From contig JAQICU010000309.1 of the NCBI GenBank assembly GCA_027858325.1, positions 1 through 26,949 on the forward strand: DNA of 26,949 nt, in the 5' to 3' direction. Positions within the stretch are counted from its first letter, which is position 1. The number at the start of each line of letters is the position of its first letter. Both the position numbers and the translations under genes were made by a program. Shown piece after piece: positions 2,553-20,990 of the stretch. Below the pieces are notes generated by a model. It saw nothing but the letters and a program-made list of their open reading frames with translations. It was not told the origin of the DNA and searched no databases. Source of the stretch: Candidatus Cloacimonadota bacterium (GTDB lineage: Bacteria > Cloacimonadota > Cloacimonadia > Cloacimonadales > TCS61).

Positions 2553-4220
2553 ATGAAAAAGAAACTATTAGTTTTTGCCTTACTACTGCTTACTATATCT
2601 GTATTTGCAGTATGGAATGTTGGTGAGCCTATCACTGACGATTATTCATGGACAGACAGTAATGGAGAATATCATTCAATCCATGAACTAACTGAAGCAG
2701 GAAAAGCAATTGTAATTTTCTGGGGAGAAAGCTGGTGACCTGGGTGTACAGCGGCGGCGCCGTTTATGGAAGCTTGGTGGAACACACAAAATCCTGATGA
2801 AGTATATTACATTGCAACTTTTGATTGGTCTGTTAATGGTGTTTATATGCCATACGCAACAGAAGTTTATGGTTATTACTCTGATTTTGGCAATGGGTAT
2901 GTCCCTTTCTTTGGAGTATTTGGAGCATATAACAATTTCATGTATGGTGATAATGATTATCTGCCAGCTCAAAACATGGTTCCTAATGCAATTGAATCAT
3001 TCAATCATATAGGTTTAGCATTCCCTGTCGCCGATAGACAGATCAATTTCTGGGGATTCGATCATATTGATATTACCAACGAGTTTGGCACTCCAACCGG
3101 GAACCCAATTTCTTCTGTATCAATAACTGGCAACAGCAATCCTAATATTGCAAATGTAGAGCTTGTTGATAATGTTATCACTGTAATTGTTGGATCTGAA
3201 CTTGGTTCTACTGAGATCACTGTAACTGGAGATGATGGAACAGATGAAACTGTGGATGATGTATTTGTAATTACTGCTTTGAATCCTAATCTATTGAGTT
3301 ACGAATATCTTCTGGAAGATAGTCCGATTCAAGGATTATCTCCCAACAATCCAAATCCTTATTCAAACTCATATATCGATCTTGGCTGGACATCAATAGA
3401 TGTTACTGAAACGGATGAAATTGCAAATGTTTATTTCTCAGTAATGTGGGAAAGTGTTGATTATGTTAGTGAAGGAAGTTTCCGTGCTACATCTCCAAAC
3501 GGAACCGATGTTTTACTTTATAATCCTTCTGGCACAGATCCTGTACAATTAGAGATCAACGCTACAGAATTTAATGGTGAAGCAATGGATGGTGAATGGA
3601 TCATTTACATGTTAGATAGCTATGGTGACGGTGGACATCAGGTTACTGATGGTGTTGTAAACTTTATGTCCGATACAGATGAAATCGGTCAAGTCGCCGG
3701 TATTGTTTCAGATGCTGATGGCAATCCAATTCCAGAAGCAGTTATTTCTGTAAGTAATATTGCTACTATGGCAGATGATCTGGGTCAATTCTCATTTGAA
3801 ATTCTTAGTGGTGATTACACATTCACCTGTGAAGCTGAGGGTTACGAAGTAACTACTATAGACGATGAAGTGATTACAGATGAACTTACTTACCTTGATT
3901 TCCAATTGACAGCAATTACAGGGACTAATGATCTTCCAGTTCTTATAACAGAACTTCAAAGCAACTACCCAAATCCATTCAATCCAGTTACAAATATTTC
4001 TTATTCAGTTAAAGAAGCTGGAGATGTTACTCTTGAAGTTTACAATATAAAAGGACAACTCGTAACCACACTTGTTAACGAGGTAAAAGAAACAGGTAAT
4101 TATACAACAATCTGGAATGGTACAGACAATTCAAACAAATCTGTATCCAGTGGTGTTTACTTCTATAAAATGAAATCCGGCAACTACACTGCAACCAAGA
4201 AAATGATCTTAATGAAATAA
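2553..4220 (+). CDS. Secreted selenoprotein (555 aa, Sec62): signal peptide + UxxC thioredoxin-like domain + Ig-like + P-domain-like + carboxypeptidase-regulatory-like + FlgD-Ig/T9SS-like CTD
   Basis: ORFs 2553-2738 and 2766-4220 are in the same frame, separated only by TGA 2736-2738; readthrough gives FWGESW-U-PGC. SD AGGAG and signal peptide are on the upstream part only. SECIS-like hairpin follows. NYPNPFNP...KKMILMK terminus. Confidence 0.88.
2745..2768 (+). promoter_or_regulatory. Bacterial SECIS-like hairpin for TGA 2736-2738
   Basis: AGCGGC-[GGC]-GCCGTT upper stem, extendable with a bulged C2749; G-first loop starts 17 nt after the TGA. GC-rich GCG GCG GCG CCG codons in an AT-rich gene. 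Confidence 0.7.
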
Positions 4221-4229
4221 GAGAATTGA

Positions 4230-4255
4230 GCCTGACCACTTGCAAGTGGTCAGGC
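4230..4255 (+). terminator. Perfect 26-bp palindrome after the selenoprotein 1 stop; possible terminator or RNA-stabilising hairpin
   Basis: GCCTGACCACTTGCAAGTGGTCAGGC, 9 nt after the stop codon; the T-run (4264-4268) is not immediately adjacent. Confidence 0.55.
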
Positions 4256-4327
4256 AACTTATCTTTTTAATGAAATAGTGTAGCGATGTTACTATCGCTA
4301 CATAGTCACAACGTTCAACATTGCGAT

Positions 4328-4357
4328 AAAACGCCCTGAGAGATCGGGGTGTTTTTT
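4328..4357 (+). terminator. Intrinsic terminator
   Basis: AAAACGCCCTGA-GAGA-TCGGGGTGTTTT stem with GNRA loop, running into a T-tract (4352-4357). Confidence 0.8.
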
Positions 4358-4436
4358 GTTATTAATTATTTGACAATTCACATCAATTTGCTTTGTTGCC
4401 TCATGTGTTGCAACAATGATTTTTCATGGAGAAAAA

Positions 4437-5246
4437 ATGAATAAGTATTTAACTGAATTAATGGAAGTCGGACTTACAGAGAATGAGGCAAAAGTATATA
4501 GTTGCCTTTTGCGAAAACATACATTCACAGCAACTGAGATTTCACAATGTTGCACCGTAAACAGATCCCGGATCTATTCCGTTCTTGCAAGTTTAATAAA
4601 TAAAGGATTGTGTATAGAAAAACTGGGGAAAGTCAGAAGATTCCAAGCTGAAACTCCGGAAATTGCTTTTGAAAAACTCATTAACGAACAAAATGAAAAA
4701 TTAAAAACCCTTAACTCTCTACCCGAGCTTCTCTCTCCAATTTATAATTCTAATACCGACAACTCTTCTCCACTCAAATTCATCGAAGTTTATGGTACAC
4801 CTTCAAGTATTATAAAAAAACATCACACACTTGAACTTGAATCTAAAAAAGTTGTGCTCTCTTTCTGCAAATCTCCTTATGCAATGTCATATGACCTTAA
4901 TATTCATGAGGAACAAGAAGAAAGCATGAAAACAGGTGTCGTATACAAATCGATCTTTGAAATAGAGAAAGATGGTATTGAACTATTTGCCAGAAGAATG
5001 AAAAATTTTGAAGATCAGGGTGAAGAGATAAAAGTGGCATATCACCTTCCAATAAAATTGCATGTGTTTGATAACCACACTGTTATGTTCTCCATGATCA
5101 ACCAGGTAAATCCTGAACAAAACCTTACATATATGGTTATTGAGCATTCAGACCTAGCTGAAACACTCATTACTACATTCTACAAATATTGGGGTGAAGC
5201 ACTCACAGTTAGAGAGTTTCTAAAGAAGGAAAATATTAAACTTTAG
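4437..5246 (+). CDS. TrmB-family transcriptional regulator
   Basis: N-terminal GLTENEAKVYSCLL...RSRIYSVLASLINKGL winged HTH; C-terminal effector domain (LPIKLHVFD). Start placed at ATG 4437 after GGAGA. Confidence 0.85.
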   Translation: MNKYLTELMEVGLTENEAKVYSCLLRKHTFTATEISQCCTVNRSRIYSVLASLINKGLCIEKLGKVRRFQAETPEIAFEKLINEQNEKLKTLNSLPELLSPIYNSNTDNSSPLKFIEVYGTPSSIIKKHHTLELESKKVVLSFCKSPYAMSYDLNIHEEQEESMKTGVVYKSIFEIEKDGIELFARRMKNFEDQGEEIKVAYHLPIKLHVFDNHTVMFSMINQVNPEQNLTYMVIEHSDLAETLITTFYKYWGEALTVREFLKKENIKL

Positions 5247-5306
5247 GAATGCAAATTGCATTATTTGATAGTGTAAAATAATAATAATAATATATTCGGA
5301 GGATTA

Positions 5307-6911
5307 ATGAGGAAAATTTTGTGGATCACTTTTGCAATGCTGATACTATTTACTTCTCTTTTTGCACAATTACCTGACCCACAACATGTAGTTTCAGCAA
5401 AGATCGAAGAGAATCAAATAAAGGTAACATACATAATACCAAAAGGTTTTTATCAGACTTTATTAAAAGACATGTTATTCATCGATGTGGATGAAGTTCA
5501 TGGAATTACTTTCGAGCCAACTATCTATCCGGATGGTGAAAAATCCGAAGATGGTTATACTAAATATCATGGGAAGTTTTCATTAACTAAGCAGTTTACT
5601 ATTTCAGATAATTATAATGGGAATTCTTTTTTAAAAGTTTATGCTGGATATCAATTGTGTGATGAAGGCGGGACATGTTTTATGCCAGAAGAAGTTGAAT
5701 TCAGTTTAACTTTATCATCTGGCATAGAAGTAAAGGAAGAAGAAAGAACCGAAGACGCACATAAAGAAATTAAAAGCGTAGATGATATAGAAGGTCTGAT
5801 CGTTTTATTAGAAGACTTTGAGATCACTGGAAAAGAAGCTGGATATCAAAACAGTGAAGATTTCGTTACATTCCTGGAAAAAGCAAAAGAACCTGGTTCA
5901 TTAAGTACAAATAAATTTGCAAATATGAGTATCTGGCTTATTATCATCCTTATCTTACTCGGGGGAATTGCCTTAAATCTCACTCCCTGTGTCCTTCCTA
6001 TGATACCGATTACAATTGCTGTTTTAGGAGCCGGTACACAATCAGAATCAAAAGCTAAAGGATTTTTGATCGGTGGAATTTATGGTCTGGGAATGGCATT
6101 AGCTTATGGGTTGTTGGGTGTAATTGTGGTTCTCACCGGTTCTCAGTTCGGCACAATAAACTCATCTCCCTGGTTCAATATTATTATTGCCGCTATTTTT
6201 ATTGCATTAGCTTTAGCTATGTTCGATATCATTCCTATAGATTTCTCCAAATTTCAAAGTAATAAAGTCGGAAGTAAAAGCAGAAGTAAATTTATAACTG
6301 TATTTATTCTGGGAATCATTGCTGCTGTTTTGGCTGGAGCGTGTGTAGCTCCTGTTTTGATCTCAGTAATTTTGTATTCAACTTCACTATATACTGCTGG
6401 TAATCCTGCTGGATTGCTATTACCATTTTTATTAGGTGTTGGAATGGCAATTCCCTGGCCTTTTGCTGGAGCTGGTCTTTCCTTCCTTCCTAAACCTGGC
6501 AACTGGATGAAATGGGTAAAGATCATATTCGGGATTATTATCCTGATTATTGCGATATTCTATTTTTTCACAGGAATCAAAATTTTCAAGAGTAACAGAA
6601 CTGTAGAATATATTGCGGAATCGCATGAAACTTCTGAACTTCCATGGAAGCACTCTATAATTGAAGGTTTAAAATTAGCAAAAGAAGAGGATAAACCGGT
6701 TTTCATAGATTTTTGGGCAACCTGGTGTAAAAACTGTTTAGCTATGGATGCAACTACTTTCAAGGATGAAAAAGTGATAGAGGAATTCGAAAATTACATT
6801 TTGGTCAAATACAAAGCTGAAAACCTTAAAGTATCACCTACAAAAGAGATCTTAAATCACTTTGAAATAATCGGTTTGCCAACTTATATTACTTTGGTTC
6901 CGAAAAAATAG
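5307..6911 (+). CDS. dsbD: Protein-disulfide reductase DsbD
   Basis: Signal peptide, N-domain CDEGGTC, TM domain with LTPCVLP and GACVAP, C-terminal thioredoxin DFWATWCKNC. Confidence 0.92.
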   Translation: MRKILWITFAMLILFTSLFAQLPDPQHVVSAKIEENQIKVTYIIPKGFYQTLLKDMLFIDVDEVHGITFEPTIYPDGEKSEDGYTKYHGKFSLTKQFTISDNYNGNSFLKVYAGYQLCDEGGTCFMPEEVEFSLTLSSGIEVKEEERTEDAHKEIKSVDDIEGLIVLLEDFEITGKEAGYQNSEDFVTFLEKAKEPGSLSTNKFANMSIWLIIILILLGGIALNLTPCVLPMIPITIAVLGAGTQSESKAKGFLIGGIYGLGMALAYGLLGVIVVLTGSQFGTINSSPWFNIIIAAIFIALALAMFDIIPIDFSKFQSNKVGSKSRSKFITVFILGIIAAVLAGACVAPVLISVILYSTSLYTAGNPAGLLLPFLLGVGMAIPWPFAGAGLSFLPKPGNWMKWVKIIFGIIILIIAIFYFFTGIKIFKSNRTVEYIAESHETSELPWKHSIIEGLKLAKEEDKPVFIDFWATWCKNCLAMDATTFKDEKVIEEFENYILVKYKAENLKVSPTKEILNHFEIIGLPTYITLVPKK

Positions 6912-6916
6912 AAGGT

Positions 6917-8035
6917 ATGAAAATGAAGAAATTCCTGATCTTAATCAGCGTGGTTTTGATACTTTTTGCCTGTGATAGATTTGAACACAAATTTGAGCCG
7001 GAAATAAACAGTGAAAATTATATAATTGATTTTTTTAATACTTTTGCAGATTCAATTTCCACATTCCCGGAAAATATCCCTGGTATTATGTCTTTCTATA
7101 ATGATGACTATAATAATAATGGTGTCACAAAGTTGGATGTAGAAAATTTCTATATTGAACTTTCTCTTTTAACACCTGGTACTCTTGATCTTGAAGCAAT
7201 AATTATTGATACAACTGATAATTTCAATATTGAATGGAGATTGATAGCTACTGAACTCTCAACTTTTACATACTTGGATTCCATAATTACAGATGTTTTA
7301 TTGCCAACTGAAGATTCTTTCCAATTCTACGGAAACCAGGCAGACATGAGAAATGTTATTGTAGAACTTTTTACCGGACAATGGTGTCCAAACTGCCCAA
7401 ATGTTGAAGAAGCATTGCATAACCTCAGAATGCAATATGGAAGCAGATTCTCTTACGTTGAGTATCATATTGGCGATCAGCTTGCCGGTGATTTTTCAGA
7501 TATATTCAGTTATTATCCAAACAACGGAACACTGCCTTTCGGCATTGTAAACGGAAATGCACATATAGTTTATTCTGCTCAAAGTGTTGAGGAAGTTCAA
7601 GCAGAAATTGAAGCTGCAATTACACCACTTCTACAAGAACAACTTTTAGTATCTCTTTCTAACGTACAATCTAATCTTACAGATTCTCTGCTTACCGGAT
7701 CTGTCCAGATCGAGATTGATCCTTCCATTCCGACAGAAAACCTTACTTTGGTTGCTGTTTTGATGGAAGATTATAATGACGAGTATCTGAACAATCATGG
7801 AGATCCTCACTACAATATTGTGCTGAAAAGAACTACTTTCGATATTTCAGCTTTAAATTTAGATGATCCCATTGATTTTGAAATAACAGATCTGGATGTA
7901 CTTCCGCAATGGTATATGGACAATACAATCGGTTTACCCGAGGATCTTACTTTAGTGATCTGGGTTCAAACTTTAGAGATACCGTATAATCAAAATACAT
8001 GTGCTGTATATAATGTTATCGAAGTTTCTCTATAA
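6917..8035 (+). CDS. Lipoprotein with C-terminal Omp28-like thioredoxin-fold domain (CPNC)
   Basis: Lipobox LFA-C; VELFTGQWCPNCP motif resembling Omp28-family proteins. Confidence 0.75.
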   Translation: MKMKKFLILISVVLILFACDRFEHKFEPEINSENYIIDFFNTFADSISTFPENIPGIMSFYNDDYNNNGVTKLDVENFYIELSLLTPGTLDLEAIIIDTTDNFNIEWRLIATELSTFTYLDSIITDVLLPTEDSFQFYGNQADMRNVIVELFTGQWCPNCPNVEEALHNLRMQYGSRFSYVEYHIGDQLAGDFSDIFSYYPNNGTLPFGIVNGNAHIVYSAQSVEEVQAEIEAAITPLLQEQLLVSLSNVQSNLTDSLLTGSVQIEIDPSIPTENLTLVAVLMEDYNDEYLNNHGDPHYNIVLKRTTFDISALNLDDPIDFEITDLDVLPQWYMDNTIGLPEDLTLVIWVQTLEIPYNQNTCAVYNVIEVSL

Positions 8036-8056
8036 ATATTTAAGGAGTGATATAAC

Positions 8057-8596
8057 ATGAAAAATATTTTTATAACTATACTGATCATGATTCTGGCAAT
8101 TCAAATATTTGCTGCTGAAAAAGCCGGTGATTTTAAATTAGAAAACATTGAAGGTAAACAGGTTAAATTATCTGATTTTCAAAAAGAAGGTCTAGTAATA
8201 TTAGATTTCTGGGCGACCTGGTGTGTTCCCTGTAAAAACGGACTACCTAAAATAAATGAATTACATGAAAAATATGATAATGTTAATGTATTGACAATCA
8301 ACGTAGATAAACCTCGAAAAAAAGCCGCGGCCATTTCTACTGTCAAATCGAATCGTTTTACATTCCACACATTATTCGATTCCAAAAAAGTTGTTCAAAA
8401 ACAATATAACATTACAAATATTCCTCGCACATTGATCATAGATCAGGATGGAACAATAATTTATGATCATACAGGTTATCAGCGAGGTGATGAAAAACAT
8501 TATGAGGAAGTGATCGTTAAGTGGCTGGAAGAACAGGAGACCGGTGAACCCAAGGAAGATATATCCGAACCAGAAATCGAAGTACCGGAAGACTAA
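8057..8596 (+). CDS. TlpA-family thiol-disulfide reductase
   Basis: Signal peptide; DFKLENIEGKQVKLSDF, LDFWATWCVPC and cis-Pro NIPRT motifs. Confidence 0.9.
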   Translation: MKNIFITILIMILAIQIFAAEKAGDFKLENIEGKQVKLSDFQKEGLVILDFWATWCVPCKNGLPKINELHEKYDNVNVLTINVDKPRKKAAAISTVKSNRFTFHTLFDSKKVVQKQYNITNIPRTLIIDQDGTIIYDHTGYQRGDEKHYEEVIVKWLEEQETGEPKEDISEPEIEVPED

Positions 8597-8608
8597 TATG
8601 GTGAGAAA

Positions 8609-10087
8609 ATGAAAAAAACTTTCTTATTGATTATTTTGTTAAGCCTGACAGCAAATCTACTCTATTCAGAATTGAACCTCTCCGGAGTGGATGAAAGAGA
8701 ATTTATTAATGTTAACAGAATCATTGAAAATAGAAACTATTTTGTAAATAAACTACAGATTCAAGCACAATACAACCCGTTTCGCTTGGGACTTAAATTT
8801 GATTATTACAAACCTCATTTTGACAAATTTATGCTCATCAATGATGATATGAGTAATGAATTTATTGAGGATCAGTTGAATACAGAAAAAGATGAATACT
8901 ATTTCGATGAATACTACCTGCAATATGAATCTGATCATTGGTTTGCTCAGGCAGGAACTTTTGAAGCAGTTATCGGTTCCGGTATTGTTTTACACAATTT
9001 CTATGATGATGACTTTGAATCGGATTCCAGATTGATCGGTGGGTATGTAAATCCGGTTTATGATAGATGGCAAATGCAATTGTTTGGCGGAGTCATGGAA
9101 AGCATCGATCCTAATTTAGAAGATGAATACGATCAGGTAGGTGCTTTAGATGCAGCTGTAAGTTTTACAGAGAAACTTACTGTTGGTGGCAGCTATGTTC
9201 TACATAGAGAACTTATTAATGCAGACGAAGATGAATTCAATAACAGAACTGTTTATGCAGGGAAACTAAACTTCTCCTCTTCCCTATTTGATCTACACAC
9301 TGAATATGCAACCAGCAAAGATGATGAAGATGTAACAGGATCTGCAATCTATTCCAACATTGCATCTTATATAGGTAAATTCACACTTATTGGTGCTTAT
9401 AAAAATTACGAAAATTTTGATGTGAGAATATCCGATCTGCCGATGGTTAATCACTCAGGACAAATTTTGGAGCATAGTTGGGATGCTGGAAAAGATGAAG
9501 AAGGGCTAATGGGAGAGATACGTTTTCTTCCTAATTATGAAAATGAATTTATAGTAAATTATGCCGAAGGTTGGAACAGTAATTTCATGGTAAGGCTAGC
9601 TAATTTCTATTCCGAATTCAAACATGATTTTGAAGTCTGGTCATTCAAAGCTGAATTTGAATCATTGGAACAACTTAACAAAGAAGATACAAATAGATGG
9701 TATAAAGAGATCACTCCTACTCTTACTTTTGATTTTCTAGTGAAGGAAAGTCCTGTTCTAATTAAAGCTGAATATCAATATAAAGAAGAAGATAAAATAA
9801 TCGGTAATTATTCGCATTTTGAACCTCGTTTACAAACAGATATAGCAATTGGAAACTATTCTTTATCTGTCGCAGTTGAAAACCAGATCGGTGACTCTGA
9901 CTCACCTGAAGATGGAGATGATGGTGAATACTGGATCGGTGGAGAACTTGCAACAACAATATTCAATAATACTGATTTACGATTATTTTATGGTAAAGAA
10001 AAAGGCGGTATCGTTTGTCGAAATGGTGTTTGTAAAAATCAGGCAGAATTTGATGGGATCCGTCTGAGTGTAACAACAACGTTTTAA
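8609..10087 (+). CDS. Predicted outer-membrane beta-barrel (DUF6029-like) with C-terminal CxxxxC
   Basis: Signal peptide, alternating amphipathic strands, terminal Phe, GGIVCRNGVC near the C-terminus. The family name is from recall of similar TlpA/Omp28-linked proteins and is not verified. Confidence 0.65.
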   Translation: MKKTFLLIILLSLTANLLYSELNLSGVDEREFINVNRIIENRNYFVNKLQIQAQYNPFRLGLKFDYYKPHFDKFMLINDDMSNEFIEDQLNTEKDEYYFDEYYLQYESDHWFAQAGTFEAVIGSGIVLHNFYDDDFESDSRLIGGYVNPVYDRWQMQLFGGVMESIDPNLEDEYDQVGALDAAVSFTEKLTVGGSYVLHRELINADEDEFNNRTVYAGKLNFSSSLFDLHTEYATSKDDEDVTGSAIYSNIASYIGKFTLIGAYKNYENFDVRISDLPMVNHSGQILEHSWDAGKDEEGLMGEIRFLPNYENEFIVNYAEGWNSNFMVRLANFYSEFKHDFEVWSFKAEFESLEQLNKEDTNRWYKEITPTLTFDFLVKESPVLIKAEYQYKEEDKIIGNYSHFEPRLQTDIAIGNYSLSVAVENQIGDSDSPEDGDDGEYWIGGELATTIFNNTDLRLFYGKEKGGIVCRNGVCKNQAEFDGIRLSVTTTF

Positions 10088-10105
10088 TAATTAAGGAGAT
10101 ATAAA

Positions 10106-10831
10106 TTGAAAAAGTTAATTTTATTATTATTTTTAGTGATGAGCATGGGGTTAGTTCATGCTGAATTGGAAGTTGATATTCCATTTGATATGGATATCAT
10201 CGGTGACGATTTTTCAGTAGTTGGTCCCTATATTTATGAATCAGATTGGATCACGATCTCAAATGTTGGTTCAACAAATGAAACATATACTATAACATGT
10301 TCTTTCAGTGAAGTGCCGGCAGATTGGACAGCTAGCGTTTGTAATGAACTAGGATTATGTTACATTCCCAATATGCCTTCTAATATCGATATTAACGCTG
10401 GTGAATTTGTGCTTATTCATCTTTTACTGGGAGTAAATAGTACTGGTGGCTGTGGTGTGAACATTACACTGGATGACGGAGACCTTACAGAACCGATCAG
10501 TCTTGATTTCAGATTTGATACAGCTGACAATGTAAGCGCTGATGAGGAACTTATTCCAGCTCTCATACTTGGACAGAACTATCCAAATCCGTTTAATCCG
10601 AGTACAACAATTTCTTATAACCTATCTACTGAGGAATTGGCAAACGCAAGTATTTCCATTTATAATACAAAAGGACAATTAATTAGAACATTTAACGATC
10701 TTAATACTAACGGAAGTATTATATGGGATGGAAAAGATGATAACAATAATATCGTTAACTCAGGTGTTTATTTCTATAAATTAAATAGCATAAAATCTTC
10801 GAAAATAAGAAAAATGATCTTAATTAAATAA
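10106..10831 (+). CDS. Small secreted protein with FlgD-Ig/T9SS-like CTD and a 4-Cys N-terminal domain
   Basis: TTG start after AAGGAG; signal peptide; WTASVCNELGLCY motif; QNYPNPFNP...RKMILIK terminus. Confidence 0.8.
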   Translation: MKKLILLLFLVMSMGLVHAELEVDIPFDMDIIGDDFSVVGPYIYESDWITISNVGSTNETYTITCSFSEVPADWTASVCNELGLCYIPNMPSNIDINAGEFVLIHLLLGVNSTGGCGVNITLDDGDLTEPISLDFRFDTADNVSADEELIPALILGQNYPNPFNPSTTISYNLSTEELANASISIYNTKGQLIRTFNDLNTNGSIIWDGKDDNNNIVNSGVYFYKLNSIKSSKIRKMILIK

Positions 10832-10842
10832 AGGAGGGAAAA

Positions 10843-12807
10843 ATGAAAAAGAGCATTTTATTACTGGTTTTATTGGTTTTGACAATGTCATTGTTTGGCG
10901 TCTATAATGTCGGTGATATAGTAGATAACTATACTTGGACAGACAATACGGGAGCGGCACATGATATTTATGAGCTAACTGCTCAAGGTGTAGCAATCGT
11001 CTTCTTCTGGGGAGGTTATTCCTGACCTAGCTGTGTTGCGGCGGCGCCGCAATTTCAAGCTTTATGGGAACAACAACAACAGTATCCGGATGGTAATGTA
11101 TATATGATTACACAAACTGACTGGGGTGCAGGACATACTCATTTCACAGGGATAGGAGCATCAGGTGCATTTGGGAATGGATATATCCCCTTGTTTGCAG
11201 TTATAGGTGCAGACAATGAATGTTATTATAATAATAATTACTTTTCCAGTGTAACATCAGCTCTGAATCTAGCAATTGAATCATTTGGACTTAATGCAAA
11301 TATGACGGCAAATGTAACAAGTGGACCTGCGAATCTAGCAGTTCAATTTCAAAGCCTTTGCACACCAGCAAATGGTATCGAAAGCTGGGAATGGGATCTG
11401 GATGGTGATGGCGAGATCGACAGTACAGAAGAAGATCCTTATTTTCTTTATACTGAACAAGGTACTTATGATGTCACCTTAACAATAACTATGGACGGAG
11501 AGACATCTACACTCACAAATGAAGATTATATCACGGTTACCGACGGCTCGAATATCTCGGGATCTCTTTCCGGTAACTGGATTGCCGGTAATACATACAC
11601 TATAACTGGTGAGGTTGATATACCTGAAGGTAATGAACTAATAATTACTGAGGGAACTGAGATCAATATAGAAAATGACACTCAGTTGTTAGTAAATGGG
11701 CTTCTGGCAGCAGATGCATCATCTTCACGAGGAGAACCTATTATTTTCAAATCAGAATCTTCCTGGAGCGGTATAAGATTCTTTAATACTCAAGAAGATA
11801 ATATTCTTGCTAACTGTGAGATCTCCAATGCTAGTGTTTCCGCTATTTTGGTAGAAGGTGATTCAAAAGTTGATGTTATCGGATGTAAAATATTTGATAA
11901 TACGAGTACTTCACTTGGAGCAGCATTTGAAGTTATTGGATCTGATAATGTTCTGATCTCTCAAAACATAATTGCTAATAATTACAGTACAAATTCTGTA
12001 GGTGGTATCAAATGCATCAATTCAGCAATAGAGATCACTAATAATCTGATAGTTAACAATTCAGGATCATACAGTGCTATTATTCTTCAAAACGGTTCTG
12101 ATGTAGAGTTTACGAACAATACAATTGCCAACAATGAAGCAAATGGTGTAAACGCTTATACATTCTTTATCTTAAGCTCAGATCCTGTCATCAAGAATTG
12201 CATTATCAACGATAGCAATCCGATTTTCTTTGCTTCCGGTACTATAGATGTAACATATACCTGTATAAGTGGTGGATATGAGGGCACAGGCAACATCGAT
12301 GAAGATCCTCTCTTTGCTGCACCAACAGCCGGAGACGGAACAGGATATGATGGACTTGCTGCTGATTGGAGCTTACAAGCTGGTTCACTTTGTATAAATG
12401 CCGGTGATCCTGATGCAATGTACAACGATACAGATGGAACAAGAAACGATATGGGTGCTTATGGAGGACCAACACCGTACGAATTGGAACCAACAGATTC
12501 AGATGATAACACAGTTAATGTAGCTGCTATCAACTCAATCTCTGTTTACCCAAATCCATTCAACCCGACAGCTAACATTGCACTTTCCATTAATGAGAAT
12601 GATATTCAGCAGCCTGTATCTGTAGAGATCTTCAACATAAAAGGGCAATTAGTTAAAACAATTGTGAATAATGAGATTGTCCAAAATACAAACTTTGTGT
12701 GGAACGGAAAAGACAACAGTGGTAACTCAACTTCCAGCGGAATGTATTTTGTGAAGCTGAAAACAGCTACTTCTGAAGTTTCTAAAAAGATGCTGTTGAT
12801 TAAATAG
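10843..12807 (+). CDS. Secreted selenoprotein (654 aa, Sec61): signal peptide + UxxC thioredoxin-like domain + PKD + parallel beta-helix + FlgD-Ig/T9SS-like CTD
   Basis: ORFs 10843-11025 and 11104-12807 are in frame, separated only by TGA 11023-11025; readthrough gives FWGGYS-U-PSC. The N-terminus is paralogous to 2553-2738 and a SECIS-like hairpin follows. Confidence 0.88.
11035..11053 (+). promoter_or_regulatory. Bacterial SECIS-like hairpin for TGA 11023-11025
   Basis: TTGCGGC-[GGC]-GCCGCAA perfect 7-bp stem; loop starts 17 nt after the TGA; compensatory base change relative to the 2745-2768 hairpin. Confidence 0.75.
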
Positions 12808-12828
12808 TTAATTGAATATTTCTTATTG

Positions 12829-12859
12829 AAAAGGGAACTGCTTTTACAGTTCCCTTTTT
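12829..12859 (+). terminator. Intrinsic terminator (possibly bidirectional)
   Basis: AAAAGGGAACTG-CTTTTA-CAGTTCCCTTTTT, 21 nt after the stop. Confidence 0.85.
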
Positions 12860-12943
12860 CTTACTCAGATTAAAACTATTTACGTATATGGAATGAGATA
12901 TGCATTAATAAGATGAGTTAAAATTTTTAGAAAGGAGTATTAG

Positions 12944-15900
12944 ATGTTAATAATAAAAAAACTGATTCTTGTTTTGATCTTCACAATGATGCTAACCGGA
13001 CTTTTTGGTGCTTATCTCATAGATCAACCACAGATTCTCACTCAACCTGATGGGAAAATACTGCATTGTTTTGCCTCTGGAGATGAATTCCACAACTGGC
13101 TGCATGATGAAAACGGATATACAATAATTCAAGATCCTGACACGGGATATTTTGTGTATGCTGACCTGATAGGTGAGAAACTGGTTTCTACCAGCTATAC
13201 TGCAGGTCAAATAGATCCGGCAACTACAAGTTTAAAACCAGGGTTGAATGCAAAACCTGAAGGATTTGAACAAAGAGTTGAAGAGTTCAATCAAATACTG
13301 GCAGATAGAAGAAGCAGAGTTTCCACGATCGGTGATCTGAACAATCTTGTTGTATTTATCCGTTTTTCCGATCAAACAGAATTCACTGAAACTTTAACAC
13401 AATATAATAACTTGTTCAATGCTGTTGATGAAAGCTCGATGTATCAATATTTTGACGAAGTATCGAATGAACAACTCGATATAACTTCCCATTTCTATCC
13501 CGAACCAAACGGCAATCTTATCATTTCGTATCAAAGTCCAAATCCTCGTAATTATTACGAAGTTTATAATGCTGTGACTAATCCGAACGGTTACCAAACT
13601 GATCAACAACGTACTCAAAGGGAACATGCACTTTTACAAGCTGCAATCCAATTTGTAGAAGCTCAAATACCTCCAACTCTGGATCTGGATAATGATGATG
13701 ATGGCTTAGTGGACAATGTTTGTTTCATCATCAAGGGTAGTACTGGAGCATGGGCAGACCTGCTTTGGCCCCACATGTGGGTTTTATATTCACTTGATGT
13801 TTACATTCATGGTGTGCAGGTGTGGACTTATAATTTCCAATTGTCTCAAAGTTTAAACAGCAGCGGAGTAGGAGTTTTATGTCATGAGATGTTCCACTCT
13901 CTGGGCGCACCCGATCTTTATCATTATACAAACAATGGCATCTCTCCCACCGGTAGTTGGGATTTGATGTGCGCAAATACAAATCCACCCCAGCACATGA
14001 CCACCTGGATGAAATATAAATATGGGCTCTGGTTCGATGAAGTTCCTGAAATAAACACTACTGGAACTTATACATTGGAACCGGTCGTTGATTCCCCTTA
14101 TAGTTGTTACAAAATTCCTTCTCCAAATTCTAGTACAGAATTCTTTATGGTGGAATACCGTCGCAGAACCGGGTTATTTGAACCTAGCATCCCTGGAGAC
14201 GGCTTGATCATATATAGGATAGACCCGACCCTGAATGGGAATGCTTCCGGTCCTCCGGATGAAGTTTATCTCTTCCGTCCCGATGGAACCATGACCAACA
14301 ACGGTAACGTTAATCAAGCACATTTTTCGGCTGATGTTGGCAGAACTGAATTTAATGACAACACAAATCCTGCCGGATTCCTGCAATATGGTGCACCAGG
14401 CGGGATCTTTATTTCCGAAATTGGTTTTGTAGGTGATACAATCGAATTTACCTTAAATGCAGGACTCGTCCCAATGTTTGAAACCAATGTGCAAACTGGA
14501 CCTGCCTACCTGGGAGTACAATTCACTAACACTTCATTTCCTGTTACAGGTATTGATAGCTGGGAATGGGATTTTGATGGAGATGGCATTTTTGACAGCA
14601 CAGAAGAGAATCCGTTCCATCTCTATACTGAACCTGGTGTGTATGATGTAACTCTTAAGATCGAAGTTGATGGAGAATTCGCTGAGATCACTGTTGAAGA
14701 TTATATCACAGTTACAGATGGTTCTTCAGTTAGTGGAAATCTTTCAGGAGTATGGGTACCTGATTTCAGCCCATATATGATTTCCGAAGATATTGTTATT
14801 GCAGAAGGTGATGAACTAATAATTACTGAGGGAGTTGAGATTATTTTTGCCGGAAATGTACAATTTACTGTGAATGGACTTCTGGCAGCAGATGCTTCTT
14901 CGACAAGAGGAGAACCTATTATTTTCAAATCAGAATCTTCCTGGAACGGTATAAGATTCTTTGTTACTCAAGAAGATAATATTATTGCTAACTGCGAGAT
15001 TTCCGATGCAAGTGTTTCGGCTATCAAGATTGAAGGTGATTCAAAAGTTGATGTTATCGGCTGTAAGATATTTGATAATAATAGTACTTCACTTGCTGCA
15101 GCATTTGAGATTATAGGATCTGATAATGTTCTGATCTCACAAAACATTATTGCCAATAACATAAGCACAAGCAACGCTGGAAGTATTGGCTGCAATGCCT
15201 CTTCTCCTGGAATCACAAATAATATTATTGTGAATAACACTGGACAATGGGGTGCATTTTACTTATCGAATGATTCTAATCCAATCATGACTAATAATAC
15301 AATTGCGAATAATGAATCAACTAAAGAAATTGCCGGTACTCAAACTCCATACCTGTTCTTCCTTTTGAATTCAATTCCAATTATTACTAATTCGATCATC
15401 ATTGATAATGGTGAAATCCATTTTCCGCTGAGTACACCTGAAATTACCTATAGTTGCGTAACAGGTGGATTTACAGGTGAAGGAAATATTGATGAAGATC
15501 CGCTTTTTGTTGCACCAACAGCCGGAGACGGAACAGGATATGGCGGGCTTGCTGCTGATTGGAGCTTACAAGCTGGTTCACTTTGTATAAATGCTGGTGA
15601 TCCTGCTACTATGTACAACAATATAGATGGAACAAGAAACGATATGGGCGCTTATGGTGGTCCAACTCCTTTCGAAATGGAACCAACAGATTCTGATGAT
15701 AACACAGTTAATGTAGCTGCTATCAATTCAATCTCTGTATATCCTAATCCGTTCAATCCAACTGCCAATATAGCTCTTTCAATTAACGATAATGATATCC
15801 AGCAGCCTGTATCAGTTAAGATCTTCAACATTAAAGGTCAGCTTGTAAAAACAATTGTGAATAATGAAGTCGTCCAAAATACAAACTTTGTCTGGAATGG

Positions 15901-16000
15901 AAAAGACAATAAGGGCAATTCTACCGCAAGCGGAATGTATTTTGTGAAGCTAAAAACAGCTACTTCTGAAGTTTCTAAAAAGATGCTGTTGATTAAATAA
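12944..16000 (+). CDS. Secreted M6-family (immune inhibitor A-like) zinc metalloprotease + PKD + beta-helix + FlgD-Ig/T9SS-like CTD
   Basis: Signal peptide, propeptide-like QPDG...GDEFHNW region, GVLCHEMFHSLGAPDLY (HExxH), WDLM, EFFMVEYR motifs; C-terminal half paralogous to 11311-12807. Confidence 0.88.
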   Translation: MLIIKKLILVLIFTMMLTGLFGAYLIDQPQILTQPDGKILHCFASGDEFHNWLHDENGYTIIQDPDTGYFVYADLIGEKLVSTSYTAGQIDPATTSLKPGLNAKPEGFEQRVEEFNQILADRRSRVSTIGDLNNLVVFIRFSDQTEFTETLTQYNNLFNAVDESSMYQYFDEVSNEQLDITSHFYPEPNGNLIISYQSPNPRNYYEVYNAVTNPNGYQTDQQRTQREHALLQAAIQFVEAQIPPTLDLDNDDDGLVDNVCFIIKGSTGAWADLLWPHMWVLYSLDVYIHGVQVWTYNFQLSQSLNSSGVGVLCHEMFHSLGAPDLYHYTNNGISPTGSWDLMCANTNPPQHMTTWMKYKYGLWFDEVPEINTTGTYTLEPVVDSPYSCYKIPSPNSSTEFFMVEYRRRTGLFEPSIPGDGLIIYRIDPTLNGNASGPPDEVYLFRPDGTMTNNGNVNQAHFSADVGRTEFNDNTNPAGFLQYGAPGGIFISEIGFVGDTIEFTLNAGLVPMFETNVQTGPAYLGVQFTNTSFPVTGIDSWEWDFDGDGIFDSTEENPFHLYTEPGVYDVTLKIEVDGEFAEITVEDYITVTDGSSVSGNLSGVWVPDFSPYMISEDIVIAEGDELIITEGVEIIFAGNVQFTVNGLLAADASSTRGEPIIFKSESSWNGIRFFVTQEDNIIANCEISDASVSAIKIEGDSKVDVIGCKIFDNNSTSLAAAFEIIGSDNVLISQNIIANNISTSNAGSIGCNASSPGITNNIIVNNTGQWGAFYLSNDSNPIMTNNTIANNESTKEIAGTQTPYLFFLLNSIPIITNSIIIDNGEIHFPLSTPEITYSCVTGGFTGEGNIDEDPLFVAPTAGDGTGYGGLAADWSLQAGSLCINAGDPATMYNNIDGTRNDMGAYGGPTPFEMEPTDSDDNTVNVAAINSISVYPNPFNPTANIALSINDNDIQQPVSVKIFNIKGQLVKTIVNNEVVQNTNFVWNGKDNKGNSTASGMYFVKLKTATSEVSKKMLLIK

Positions 16001-16028
16001 TTACTTCAGAGTAACAAAAATACTTATT

Positions 16029-16053
16029 AACGCCCCGGCAACGGGGCGTTTTT
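16029..16053 (+). terminator. Intrinsic terminator
   Basis: AACGCCCCG-GCAA-CGGGGCGTT with GNRA loop followed by TTT. Confidence 0.85.
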
Positions 16054-16090
16054 ATTTGACATAATTATTCTAATAAATTCCCTCATCTTT

Positions 16091-16366
16091 ATGATTAATA
16101 TTAAATTTTATAGTTTACTCAGAATGTTCTTAAAGCAAAATGAAGTTGAGATAAATGCTGACAATATTTCCATTTTAAATCTCCTGAAAAATGTTGCCGA
16201 GATAACCAATAAAGATCTTTTAGCTGAACTTATTAAAGCTGGAAAACTTATCTCAGGAACTATCATTCTTTTGAATGGCAGAAATATCTACCATTTAGAA
16301 AAAATGGATACGATTGTAAGTAATGGTGATAAGATCGACATATTCCCGCCCGGAGGTGGTGGATAA
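16091..16366 (+). CDS. MoaD/ThiS-family ubiquitin-like sulfur carrier
   Basis: 91 aa; ILLNGRNI and GDKIDIFPPGGGG with C-terminal di-Gly. Confidence 0.88.
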   Translation: MINIKFYSLLRMFLKQNEVEINADNISILNLLKNVAEITNKDLLAELIKAGKLISGTIILLNGRNIYHLEKMDTIVSNGDKIDIFPPGGGG

Positions 16367-17046
16367 TGGATCTATTTTCAAGAAATATCAAATTTTGGGG
16401 AGAGGAAAAACAAGCTCTCTTAATGGAATCGTCCATTCTTATTGCAGGAATGGGTGGTTTGGGCTGCACAGTTGCTGAAAACCTGGTTCGAGCAGGTATT
16501 GGTAAACTTATTCTACTCGATCATGACATAATAACTGAAACAAACCTGAACCGGCAGATATTATTCGATCAAGAGGATATTGAAAAATCCAAAGTAATTA
16601 CTGCGCAGAAAAAGCTATCACGAATAAATAATGAAATTGAGATCATTGCCATAGATAGGAAAATTGAAAGTGTAAATAATATCACTGAAATTAAGAGTAA
16701 TTTTTGCGGAATTGCTGATTGCCTGGATAATTATGAAAGCAGATTCATATTGAGTGATGCTTTAAGAGATGATCAATTCCTGGTTCATGGTGGAGTCAAA
16801 AATGATTTTGGTCAAATTACAACTATCAAGAATGGAATAACTCAAAATCTAAAACAAATATTTGGAGATCAGAAAGATGAGATTGAACCTGCTGTAATTC
16901 CTCAAACAGTGATCACGATTGGTTCATTAATGGCTCAGGAAATTATTAATAATATCTTTGGGAAACCACAATTGATAAACAAATTATTGATTGTTGAACT
17001 GTCGGATTTTTCTATGTTTAAGGTGGAAATGAAGAAAGGAAAATGA
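16366..17046 (+). CDS. ThiF/MoeB/HesA-family adenylyltransferase (E1-like)
   Basis: IAGMGGLG, LDHDIITETNLNRQIL and DCLDN motifs; start overlaps the MoaD stop (TAATG). Confidence 0.88.
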   Translation: MDLFSRNIKFWGEEKQALLMESSILIAGMGGLGCTVAENLVRAGIGKLILLDHDIITETNLNRQILFDQEDIEKSKVITAQKKLSRINNEIEIIAIDRKIESVNNITEIKSNFCGIADCLDNYESRFILSDALRDDQFLVHGGVKNDFGQITTIKNGITQNLKQIFGDQKDEIEPAVIPQTVITIGSLMAQEIINNIFGKPQLINKLLIVELSDFSMFKVEMKKGK

Positions 17047-17088
17047 AACCTTAAGATAATTAATTAAATAAACGAAAAAGGAAATTAA

Positions 17089-17919
17089 ATGAAAAATAAG
17101 ATTTCATCATTTGAAGGAATACGATCATTCCTGAAAGAAGGAGCCTGATCTGCAGCATTGTTGAGAGTTCTCAACTAAAGCTTTGATAAGAGGAAGCAAC
17201 TGGAAGAGAAAGGTTCTGCGCTACTGGCAGGTGGAATTATGCAGCATGGTTATCAATGCGGCATGATCTGGGGAGCAGTTCTCGCAGCAGGAGCCCAAGC
17301 TTATGAAAGATTTGGGTCTGGAGCAGAAGCTGAAACCAGAGCAATAATGGCAGCACAAAAACTTGTAGATGCCTTTCAAACTTGTACTGGTGAGATAGAC
17401 TGTTTCGAAATAACAGATATCGACAAATCATCTTCAACTATGAAGATGATCTATGTTTTTCTGATAAAAGGTAAAACCCTTGGCTGCATGCGCCTGGCTG
17501 GAAAATATGCTCCAATAGCATTTAATGAGATAAATGCTGCGTTTGCAGAAGAACAAATCGAAATACCATCAGCTCCAGTAAGCTGTGCCGCGGAATTGGC
17601 AAGAAAAATGGGTGCTTCGGAAAAACATGTTGTTATGGCAGCTGGACTTGCCGGCGGCATCGGTTTATGTGGTGGTGCTTGTGGAGCATTGGGAGCTGCA
17701 ATTTGGTTCATGACTATGAATAAAGGTTTAGACAGCAAAATGGAATTTAAAGATCCCAAGGCTCTTGAATTAATTGAAACAGCATTTTTACCAAACTCCG
17801 ATTATGAATTCGAGTGTTCCGAAATAGTTGGTCGCAAGTTTAAAAATATAAAAGATCATGCCAGGTTTATTCGTGAGGGAGGATGTGCAAAGCTCATCGA
17901 AACATTGGCAGGGAAATAA
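17089..17919 (+). pseudogene. Tandem C_GCAxxG_C_C-family redox (seleno)protein, 276 codons, with Sec TGA at codon 20 and premature TAA at codon 30 (pseudogene status uncertain)
   Basis: ATG 17089 after AAGGA is in frame with 17239-17919. U-SAALLR aligns with the second internal repeat C-AAELAR. Both repeats have LAGGI..G..CG..GA. TAA at 17176-17178. Confidence 0.7.
17154..17182 (+). promoter_or_regulatory. Bacterial SECIS-like hairpin for TGA 17146-17148
   Basis: GTTGAG-[AGTT]-CTCAAC upper stem; loop starts 17 nt after the TGA; lower stem AGC..TT/AA..GCT with T17176 bulged. Confidence 0.65.
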
Positions 17920-19448: not shown

Positions 19449-20990
19449 CTATACTTCTTTCCTCATTTTCTCAAACTGATCTTTTCCACCAGATAGTATA
19501 AAAGAATTTGGAGCAGCTTCTTTTGCCAGCTTCATCATTCTGCCTGCAGTTTCTTTGATGTCCCATTGAGCATGTTCATCTTCCCGTAAACGGGAGAAAT
19601 GATACAATTCACGTGGATTAGCAGAAACCAAAACTCTGCGTCTATGAGCATTGGTTAAGCAGTATTCTGCAGCTTTGCCATACTTTGGCACAAATTCAAA
19701 ATAGAGTTCTTCACTTCTACGGCAAATATCCAGCAGATCATTCTCGGCATTTATTGCTTTGATAGAAGTTGGAACAGTAATTCCCAGGCTGGGATCGTAA
19801 TCCTGAGTTAAAATCGTCATCAACCTGTGTCGTTTTAGTTGAGCAAAATTACTGGCACTCACCACCAATTCGTATTTCAATTCTCCGGTGAATTCAAATT
19901 CACGGGGCAATGGATCGAAAGCTGAAATATATTTAAGAATTTCTGAGAAGAAGTTTTTCCCTCTTTCCGTATCTGCCAGAATATAACAGGTGATCCGATA
20001 TGCATCTTCTATCGAAAGCTTGGAATTATGGTGAATGATCGCAGCGGCAATGTTCCGATCCACGTTTGATTCAAGGATCAGTTTTTCATGTTCTTCGGTT
20101 AATATTTCAGGAATTCCTTCGTGCTGTTTGCCGTAATATTTTTCTATCAGTTCTTTCACATATTTCTTTAAGTGTGAGTTTGTAAATTTAAAATGATCAT
20201 CCTGCAAATCTGTTTTAAATGCTTTTTTGAATTCTGTCGGATCACTGAGAATGATAAGCGATGGTGCAATTTCTTTAGTCACTTCAAATAATTTCTGAGC
20301 AAGTTCCCGACATTCCACCAACTCCGAATAACGCATGGTACGGATGGCATGTTCCAGTGTACGAGCATTGAATGACAAACCCAATTGTGCCTGAGTTGCT
20401 AAACTTAAAGCATATCTGGCATCTTCTTTAGCCCAGCCTTCCAGAGTGTTTTTAGCGCGATTCATTTTGTCGGAAGTGCCTTTCCCCATTGCGAGTTGGG
20501 CTTGTTTAGCCAAATCAGGATTGGAAGCAAACTGATGATCAGTTAGTTTTTGTAAATTTCGTAAATAGAAATCATTTTGGAATTCTACGAGTTCTCTAAA
20601 TTTCTTTGCATCTTCCTCACTGAATTCTTTTGGAATCACAAAATCACCTTGCAAAGTAATGTATCTTTGAGATTTTTATGTATAAGCAGCACCGATGCGG
20701 CGTGCTTCCAGTTCTTCCAGAGTTAGGCGTGAAATTTGCAGAATATCGAAATTGAAATAAGCATGTTCTGCCACAGAGTGATGGCTCATTCCAAAAACGA
20801 TAGCTTGATTGGAACGCCTTGCTTTCTTGACCTGTTCCCGTGCTTCGGCTCTAAGTTCGGGAACATCTCGAGGATCACGACTTATTCGTGCATAAGCTGC
20901 TGAGATTGTCTCCGGTGTTGCAATTGTGTCTTCCGGTAATTTATCTATCAAATTTTTATCGATGTTGAATCCGGCTAATATGATTTTCAT
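19449..20990 (-). pseudogene. thyX: Tandem-domain FAD-dependent thymidylate synthase (ThyX) interrupted by a single in-frame TAA (pseudogene status uncertain)
   Basis: 20676-20990 and 19449-20654 are in the same frame: ...IGAAYT-TAA-KSQRYITLQG. SVAEHA, SQRY, QLKRHR and LREDEHAQWDI motifs. Confidence 0.8.

Follow-up and report, generated by a model that had tools for sequence, protein, structure and literature searches.

Putative SECIS elements behind three in-frame UGA codons in a Candidatus Cloacimonadota genome

The 26,949-nt stretch of DNA analysed here (the window), which belongs to a Candidatus Cloacimonadota MAG, contains three in-frame TGA codons, each followed at the same distance by a short hairpin. 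The locus raises the question of whether these hairpins are bacterial SECIS elements and whether, as an earlier note on this DNA had suggested, their common spacing defines the rule by which the SelB of this lineage recognizes its targets. According to our comparative sequence analysis, the three hairpins are very probably bacterial SECIS elements of the standard kind standing behind selenocysteine (Sec) codons, while in shape and in their 17-nt spacing they obey the rule published for bacteria and do not set this lineage apart.

Host genes and hairpin structures

All three host genes lie on the forward strand. Gene 1 (positions 2553 to 4220) is predicted to encode a secreted thioredoxin/AhpC-like UxxC selenoprotein with the motif W-U-P-G-C and a T9SS C-terminal sorting domain; its readthrough ORF of 555 amino acids has Pfam matches to AhpC-TSA/Redoxin (weak), CarboxypepD_reg, and Por_Secre_tail, and its homologues carry an in-frame TGA. 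Gene 2 (positions 10843 to 12807), whose product shares 50% identity with the head of gene 1, is deemed a paralogue that likewise encodes a UxxC selenoprotein (motif S-U-P-S-C), with PKD and beta-helix regions and a T9SS tail, according to its readthrough ORF, Pfam matches, and paralogy. Gene 3 (positions 17089 to 17919) plausibly encodes a double-domain C_GCAxxG_C_C selenoprotein and is interrupted by a TAA in this assembly; the Pfam domain runs through this TAA, and the orthologues have one TGA and no TAA. The putative Sec codons are the TGAs at 2736 to 2738 and 11023 to 11025, both conserved among homologues, and at 17146 to 17148, which stands opposite Cys in a homologue that belongs to the same order but to a different family. 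Standard ORF calling breaks up each of the three genes, with a signal peptide only in the part upstream of the TGA, and the frame continues past the UGA for 493, 593, and 256 codons in genes 1 to 3, respectively, gene 3 being counted through its private TAA.

Minihelix 1 has a 6-bp stem (2750 to 2764; AGCGGC/GCCGTT) closed by a GGC triloop at 2756 to 2758, minihelix 2 has an 8-bp stem (11035 to 11053; GTTGCGGC/GCCGCAAT) closed by a GGC triloop at 11043 to 11045, and minihelix 3 has a 6-bp stem (17160 to 17175; GTTGAG/CTCAAC) with an AGTT loop at 17166 to 17169. All three were delineated on the forward strand from geometry and orthologue comparison, and minihelix 2 also from folding. The coordinates given in the earlier note, with the loops 17 nt after the TGA, were confirmed at all three sites; the helices start 9 to 12 nt and the loop G lies 18 to 19 nt past the UGA, and the stems are continuous, without a bulge. 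Alignment of the first two sites likewise upheld the claim that both thioredoxin-like genes keep GCGGCGGCGCCG (Ala-Ala-Ala-Pro), while the flanking pairs differ (G-T versus G-C and A-T versus T-A). The minimum free energies over 50 nt (the UGA plus 47 nt) are −12.6, −18.0, and −10.2 kcal/mol for sites 1, 2, and 3, with single-sequence z values of +0.5, −1.7, and −0.4, which are unremarkable by themselves. Rfam, searched with the window at E values up to 10, returned no SECIS family match. A longer lower stem, in which the UGA region would pair with columns 32 to 40, is not conserved, its internal pairs from 4-39 to 10-33 being only about 25 to 75% paired, and the conserved part is the apical minihelix only.

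The in-frame TAA of gene 3 (17176 to 17178, forward strand), ten codons past the UGA, is private to this assembly. The codon at its position is GAA or CAG in all seven orthologues, and base 17176 is G, giving the codon GAA, in contigs of four other metagenome runs from three studies, one of which equals the window except at this base. A recoding of TAA was considered and rejected, since TAA ends more genes than any other stop codon (738 of 1,311 long ORFs) and relatives and other metagenomes have GAA at 17176. Other in-frame TAAs lie in thyX and uvrB; like the one in gene 3, they may be either assembly errors or real nonsense alleles.

Conserved UGA codons and constraint on the hairpins

The genome possesses selA, selB, tRNA-Sec, and a Sec-type selD. 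The selB product (on C69) shows full-length similarity to E. coli SelB and contains the SelB winged-helix domain, the tRNA-Sec gene adjoins selB, and selD itself has an in-frame TGA. One in-frame TGA occurs in about 44 of the 49 thioredoxin-like matches (38 of 62 family genomes), and in the thioredoxin-like alignment it falls in the same column in 31 of 31 sequences; the non-Sec homologues L127 and L126 have CPFS and SPSS, respectively. For C_GCAxxG_C_C, two pooled searches gave eight full-length matches, of which seven, including all seven within the family, have one TGA, and the eighth, L125, which is the homologue from the different family mentioned above, carries Cys where the others have the UGA.

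These data bear on an alternative, namely, that the TGAs are true stops ending split or decayed genes and that the hairpins are unrelated to them, for instance terminators. Although ORF calling does split the genes and gene 3 has an extra TAA in this assembly, we regard this as extremely improbable: the TGA stays in place at the active site (the U of UxxC, opposite Cys) in dozens of genomes, the frame remains open for about 480 to 590 codons past it with Pfam domains and T9SS tails, the signal peptide is confined to the upstream part, none of the hairpins at sites 1 to 3 is followed by a T-run on its 3′ side, and the TAA is missing in relatives and other metagenomes.

How often such hairpins arise by chance was assessed with whole-genome scans for explicit patterns in place of a covariance model, since a model built on the TGA plus 42 coding nt is family specific. 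When the geometry was defined strictly (a loop of 3 to 4 nt at exactly 17 nt, a stem of at least 5 bp that includes two or more GC pairs, and a G as first or second loop base), it occurred in this genome downstream of 9 of 4,810 Cys codons and of just 1 of 345 true TGA stops, the control that the earlier note had proposed. A loose SECIS-like definition without an energy cut matched more than 50% of any sites, stops and Cys codons alike. Because of this, and because the z values are unremarkable, support for the SECIS reading comes from geometry and comparative data and not from folding energy.

GCG makes up 6.85% of Ala codons genome-wide, and in the Ala-Ala-Ala-Pro stretch of the Sec forms it accounts for 83 of 84 Ala codons, followed by CCG in 28 of 31 sequences (pattern GCG GCG GCG CCG); of the three exceptions, which have CCT, two are paired with a compensating GAG. 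The thioredoxin-like helix is paired in 79% of cells, versus 25 to 62% in slid registers, with double changes at five of its eight pairs and a covariation score of 0.233, versus 0.109 when shuffled; none of 500 shuffles scored as high as the real alignment. At site 3, an orthologue with only 44% protein identity has exactly the same 18-nt hairpin, and 94% of cells are paired; pairs changed from U-A to C-G once, by a double change, and from A-U to G-U twice. The set for this site consists of only eight orthologues with little variation, and the shuffle test falls short of significance (59 of 500). The loop G is conserved in 29 of 31 thioredoxin-like and 8 of 8 C_GCAxxG_C_C orthologues.

It could be argued that the hairpins are a by-product of conserved protein sequence (Ala-Ala-Ala-Pro after UxxC; Leu-Leu-Arg-Val-Leu-Asn) with no function at the RNA level. 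The encoded residues are indeed conserved themselves, Gly/Pro-rich or Ala/Pro-rich stretches readily give G-C pairs, and Cys-type cyclophilin homologues also form chance hairpins. However, this explanation is highly improbable in light of the synonymous third positions, which are fixed to a rare codon, and of the pairing, which survives changes of residue (GAG with CCT, ACG with TTT, and TCG with ACT or GTA). Moreover, the non-Sec homologues encode Ala-Ala-Ala with common codons (gca gct gca or gca gcc gcg), and no hairpin is formed there. In the selD and CGGU families, some Cys-type homologues keep the hairpin, so that a hairpin by itself is not diagnostic.

The proposal of the earlier note that the hairpins fit the bacterial SECIS model is therefore borne out by the conserved TGA, the fixed synonymous codons, the covariation, the Sec machinery, and the lack of the hairpin in Cys or Ser homologues, which use ordinary Ala codons. 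In the SECIS reading, the element would be a GC-rich, bulge-free stem of 5 to 8 bp with an apical loop of 3 to 4 nt and G in first or second place. With the UGA in the A site, the helix would sit at the mRNA entrance. By the standard bacterial mechanism, the C-terminal winged-helix domain of SelB would bind the loop and deliver Sec-tRNA(Sec), and the UGA would then be read as selenocysteine. The predicted products are a pair of UxxC proteins of thioredoxin fold that are secreted by T9SS and a single C_GCAxxG_C_C redox protein.

Spacing and loops across selenoprotein families

We recorded loop, stem, and spacing in seven gene families; for six of these, the comparison drew on about 160 sequences. 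The idea that the SelB of Cloacimonadota needs the loop exactly 17 nt past the UGA, with a small GGC loop as its signature, is favoured by three unrelated families, the 17-nt spacing being found in 29 of 31 thioredoxin-like, 27 of 30 selD, and 7 of 8 C_GCAxxG_C_C sequences, with GGC triloops in thioredoxin-like genes and selD alike. Nevertheless, such a lineage rule is very unlikely and is contradicted by other families, which place the loop at 18 to 21 nt. Within the same GTDB family, the CGGU family, present in the same genomes, has a covarying hairpin with the loop at 20 to 21 nt (GGUC, AGUU, GUU, or GUG), the NCUG/WUGYC family has its loop at 18 to 21 nt, and in the cyclophilin family and in Rdx the distance is 21 nt. 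A search for further Rdx (SelW-like) homologues within the family found none outside this genome. The selD loops of the lineage themselves vary (GGC, GUC, GGA, and CGGGU, with GGC at 17 nt among them), and a Synergistota selD has GGC at 17 nt as well (PMC13326102). The two paralogues share the 17-nt spacing by inheritance, and the third gene has it by coincidence, within the 17- to 21-nt working range of the lineage. Nor does the GGC loop deserve to be called unusually small, as the earlier note had it, since it stands at the lower edge of the published 3- to 9-nt range (PMC13188914) and recurs in selD, both here and in Acetomicrobium mobile.

G(G/U)N triloops are common across the selenoprotein families of these genomes. 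We tentatively raise the possibility, which we hold to be rather less than even, that this Cloacimonadota family has a much-expanded, mostly T9SS-secreted selenoprotein set decoded by minimal SECIS elements without a bulge, with a G(G/U)N triloop or a tetraloop, a conserved core that can shrink to 13 nt (five base pairs and a 3-nt loop), and the loop G 18 to 22 nt past the UGA. If so, SelB recognition would be of a simpler mode than in E. coli, and the compact element would be useful for recoding. Since gene callers truncate at UGA, Cloacimonadota MAGs hide many selenoproteins, for which the combination of a G(G/U)N loop on a short stem rich in GC with a spacing of 17 to 21 nt provides a usable SECIS description in the phylum.

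Comparison with known bacterial SECIS elements

The known selenoprotein inventory includes Prx-like and TlpA-like UxxC thiol:disulfide oxidoreductases and C-GCAxxG-C-C forms 1 and 2 (PMC13188914). The host genes belong to these fold families (PF00578-like UxxC; PF09719), the likeness being at the fold-family level, but the UxxC heads found here are fused to large T9SS-secreted tails. In E. coli fdhF, the SECIS is a 17-nt minihelix located 11 nt from the UGA, with a bulged U17 and the loop bases G23 and U24 (PMC8659212). The present elements resemble it as minihelices within the ORF that begin at a similar distance (about 9 to 12 nt), with the loop G 18 to 19 nt past the UGA versus 19 to 20 nt in fdhF by our own count. 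The loop of site 3 (AGUU) contains GU as in fdhF, whereas the GGC loops of the thioredoxin-like genes have no U after the G, and the bulged U is absent from all three stems. The selD SECIS of A. mobile (Synergistota), listed in Table 1 of BSepDB, has a GGC triloop with GUCC/GGAC closing, 17 nt past the UGA (PMC13326102). Its loop and spacing are those of the two thioredoxin-like genes and of the lineage's own selD, although gene and stem sequence differ from those of the thioredoxin-like genes; the likeness to selD is partly due to the conserved coding sequence (S/G)-P-A-D.

The bacterial SECIS consensus (the bSECISearch model of Zhang and Gladyshev, 2005, summarised in PMC13188914) describes a loop of 3 to 9 nt on an upper stem of 4 to 16 bp, a G as first or second loop base that in most cases precedes a G or U, a UGA-to-loop distance of 16 to 37 nt, and a minimum free energy of −7.5 kcal/mol or lower. 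The loops of 3, 3, and 4 nt (GGC, GGC, and AGUU, each with the required G), the stems of 6, 8, and 6 bp, and the 17-nt distance at the three sites all agree with it, as do the energies of sites 1 to 3 over 50 nt, although the bSECISearch window may differ. The remaining features of the model, a UGA in a continuing ORF, the full SelA/SelB/tRNA-Sec/SelD set, and Cys homologues, are present too, and compensatory changes among orthologues are strong for the thioredoxin-like genes and modest for site 3 (eight sequences, one double change). Compared with the consensus, the three elements are at the small, close end of the ranges of loop size and spacing; the published consensus already covers them, and no new mechanism is implied.

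Hairpins, host genes and Sec machinery

According to our analysis, reading TGA as Sec (U) merges split ORFs into three genes on the forward strand. Gene 1 (2553-4220, 555 aa) encodes a signal peptide, the motif FWGESW-U-PGC, weak AhpC/Redoxin similarity and a T9SS sorting domain; gene 2 (10843-12807, 654 aa), the head of which is 50% identical to that of gene 1, encodes S-U-PSC, PKD, a beta-helix and a T9SS tail; and gene 3 (17089-17919) encodes a double C_GCAxxG_C_C protein. Each carries a hairpin on the same strand with its loop 17 nt after the TGA, at the coordinates that the earlier note had reported: site 1 (TGA 2736-2738, loop GGC 2756-2758, stem AGCGGC/GCCGTT), site 2 (TGA 11023-11025, loop GGC 11043-11045, stem GTTGCGGC/GCCGCAAT) and site 3 (TGA 17146-17148, loop AGTT 17166-17169, stem GTTGAG/CTCAAC). 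Also as claimed there, GCGGCGGCGCCG is common to both GGC hairpins of the thioredoxin-like genes 1 and 2, and the flanking pairs differ between sites 1 and 2 (G-T versus G-C, A-T versus T-A).

Folding of 50 nt gave MFEs of -12.6, -18.0 and -10.2 kcal/mol for sites 1, 2 and 3, with unremarkable z-scores. The strict geometry, defined as a 3- to 4-nt loop at exactly 17 nt with a stem of at least 5 bp, at least two GC pairs and G at loop position 1 or 2, is rare in this genome, where it follows 9 of 4,810 Cys codons and, in the comparison with true TGA stops proposed earlier, only 1 of 345. Five looser control matches behind true stops were rejected as not being plausible genes. The genome, a Candidatus Cloacimonadota MAG of 36% G+C, has selB adjoining tRNA-Sec on contig C69, as well as selA and a selD with its own in-frame TGA; its SelB aligns end to end with that of E. 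coli, winged-helix domain included.

Conservation and covariation

Across 62 genomes of the host's GTDB family, about 44 of 49 thioredoxin-like matches contain one in-frame TGA, which is invariant in the alignment (n = 31). The Ala-Ala-Ala-Pro codons are nearly fixed (GCG in 22/23, 30/30 and 31/31; CCG in 28/31), GCG being only 6.85% of Ala codons in the host genome. Pairing survives residue changes: GAG is matched by CCT, which turns C-G into A-U, and ACG or TCG is matched by a T, A or G that follows. Paired cells make up 79% in the 8-bp helix versus 25 to 62% in slid registers, double changes occur at five pairs, and the covariation score is 0.233 versus 0.109 after shuffling, with none of 500 shuffles as high. 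RNAalifold retained the 5-bp core and the GGC loop; a lower stem reaching down to the UGA was not conserved in this alignment. In two non-Sec homologues, with CPFS and SPSS, these three alanines are spelled gca gcc gcg and gca gct gca, and the hairpin is absent in both.

The TGA of gene 3 is kept in seven full-length orthologues, and a homologue from another family of the same order has Cys at this position and no hairpin. All 18 nt of the site 3 hairpin are identical even in an orthologue at 44% protein identity; one orthologue shows a U-A to C-G double change, and another a one-base register shift giving a GUU triloop that leaves the G 19 nt downstream of the UGA. The statistics for this set of eight sequences are weak, as high a score being reached by 59 of 500 shuffles.

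Taken on sequence evidence, the reading of the hairpins as bacterial SECIS elements is well supported by conserved TGA, fixed GCG codons, covariation, Sec machinery and agreement with the consensus, and all three sites are very probably functional in this lineage.

Directly 3' of the site 3 hairpin lies an in-frame TAA (17176-17178). Since every orthologue has GAA or CAG here, and G stands at 17176 in contigs from three studies (four metagenome runs; in one contig it is the sole difference from the window), the TAA is either a mutation private to this MAG or an error of assembly. In-frame TAAs also occur in the housekeeping genes thyX and uvrB and probably in a uvrA-like gene, for which Pfam gives only an ABC-ATPase match; the positions in these conserved genes are 17176-17178 and 20676-20678 in the window and C333:7720 and C305:5343 elsewhere in the MAG. 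This pattern suggests assembly base errors to T or private nonsense alleles. TAA recoding was rejected, as neither the pattern nor the other metagenomes with G at 17176 suggest it.

Other selenoprotein families and SECIS spacing

Two large paralogous families with signal peptide, T9SS tail and conserved Sec are represented in the MAG at C251:4146-5780 (L044) and C162:4631-5638 (L045), with relatives L054-L083 and L167-L196. The CGGU family (W-C-x-x-U-G-(W)-T-P-P) has about 60 TGA-bearing matches in 48 of 62 genomes, and the NCUG/WUGYC family (N-C-U-G or W-U-G-Y-C) about 75 in 45 of 62, with up to 7 per genome; secreted proteins appear to dominate the selenoproteome of this Cloacimonadota family. 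A T9SS-secreted cyclophilin-type PPIase (C297:3253-4194, L049; relatives L136-L165) has an in-frame TGA in FMIQDG-U-P, a position occupied in 30 orthologues by TGA (13), Cys (12) or Asp (5). Neither "cyclophilin" nor "peptidyl-prolyl" occurs in the 2026 selenoprotein inventory (PMC13188914); these PPIases may form a selenoprotein family not yet catalogued. A SelW-like Rdx gene (CxxU; C150:4270-4506, L047), absent from the rest of the 62 family genomes, may have been acquired recently or may sit on a contaminating contig. Two further in-frame TGAs are flanked on either side by sequence of good coding potential (C325:1424-3130, L051; C68:28-1143, L050), one gene being SurA/PpiC-like with its TGA just after the signal peptide and the other encoding 371 aa with no Pfam match; both TGAs lack a Cys close by and a canonical hairpin, and they may represent Sec, error or pseudogene.

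SECIS regions were gathered from selD, the CGGU, NCUG/WUGYC and cyclophilin families and the Rdx gene in the same genomes, and spacing was counted as nucleotides between UGA and loop. In selD it is 17 in 27 of 30 sequences (loops GGC 21, GUC 5, GGA 3). It is 20 to 21 in the CGGU family (GGUC, AGUU, GUU, GUG), where covariation is clear (e.g., GATCC/GGATC to GAACC/GGTTC), 18 to 21 in the NCUG/WUGYC family (GGA, GUA, GGC, GUC, CGUGA), 21 in the cyclophilins (GGU in 8 of 13 Sec forms) and 21 in the Rdx gene (CGGGU). The lineage spacing is therefore 17 to 21 nt, and the proposal that a loop exactly 17 nt after the UGA defines SelB recognition in Cloacimonadota does not hold; the 17-nt spacing common to the two paralogues is inherited. 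Nor is the small GGC loop unusual, as had been thought: G(G/U)N triloops are the common type in these genomes and are not peculiar to the two thioredoxin-like genes.

Hairpins were also seen behind Cys codons. Three Cys-type selD homologues (L128-L130, from G034, G033 and G006; G-C-G-A-K) retain a hairpin of 7 bp whose CGUGU loop lies 16 nt downstream of the Cys codon; this may be a fossil SECIS left by Sec-to-Cys replacement. In the CGGU family, too, the Cys form (L082) retains a hairpin.

Comparison with known SECIS elements

The inventory already holds C-GCAxxG-C-C forms 1 and 2 and several UxxC Prx/TlpA-like families (PMC13188914). Sites 1 to 3 agree in every respect with the published bacterial consensus, i.e., a 3- to 9-nt loop, a 4- to 16-bp stem, 16- to 37-nt spacing, an MFE of -7.5 kcal/mol or lower and a G at loop position 1 or 2 with, in most cases, G or U after it (PMC13188914). 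The E. coli fdhF SECIS is a 17-nt minihelix 11 nt from the UGA with a bulged U17 and G23/U24 (PMC8659212); in contrast, all three sites are without the bulged U, and the thioredoxin-like loops are without U after G. In Acetomicrobium mobile selD, the example of a canonical SECIS printed by BSepDB, the GGC triloop begins, by our own count on the printed element, 17 nt after the UGA (PMC13326102).
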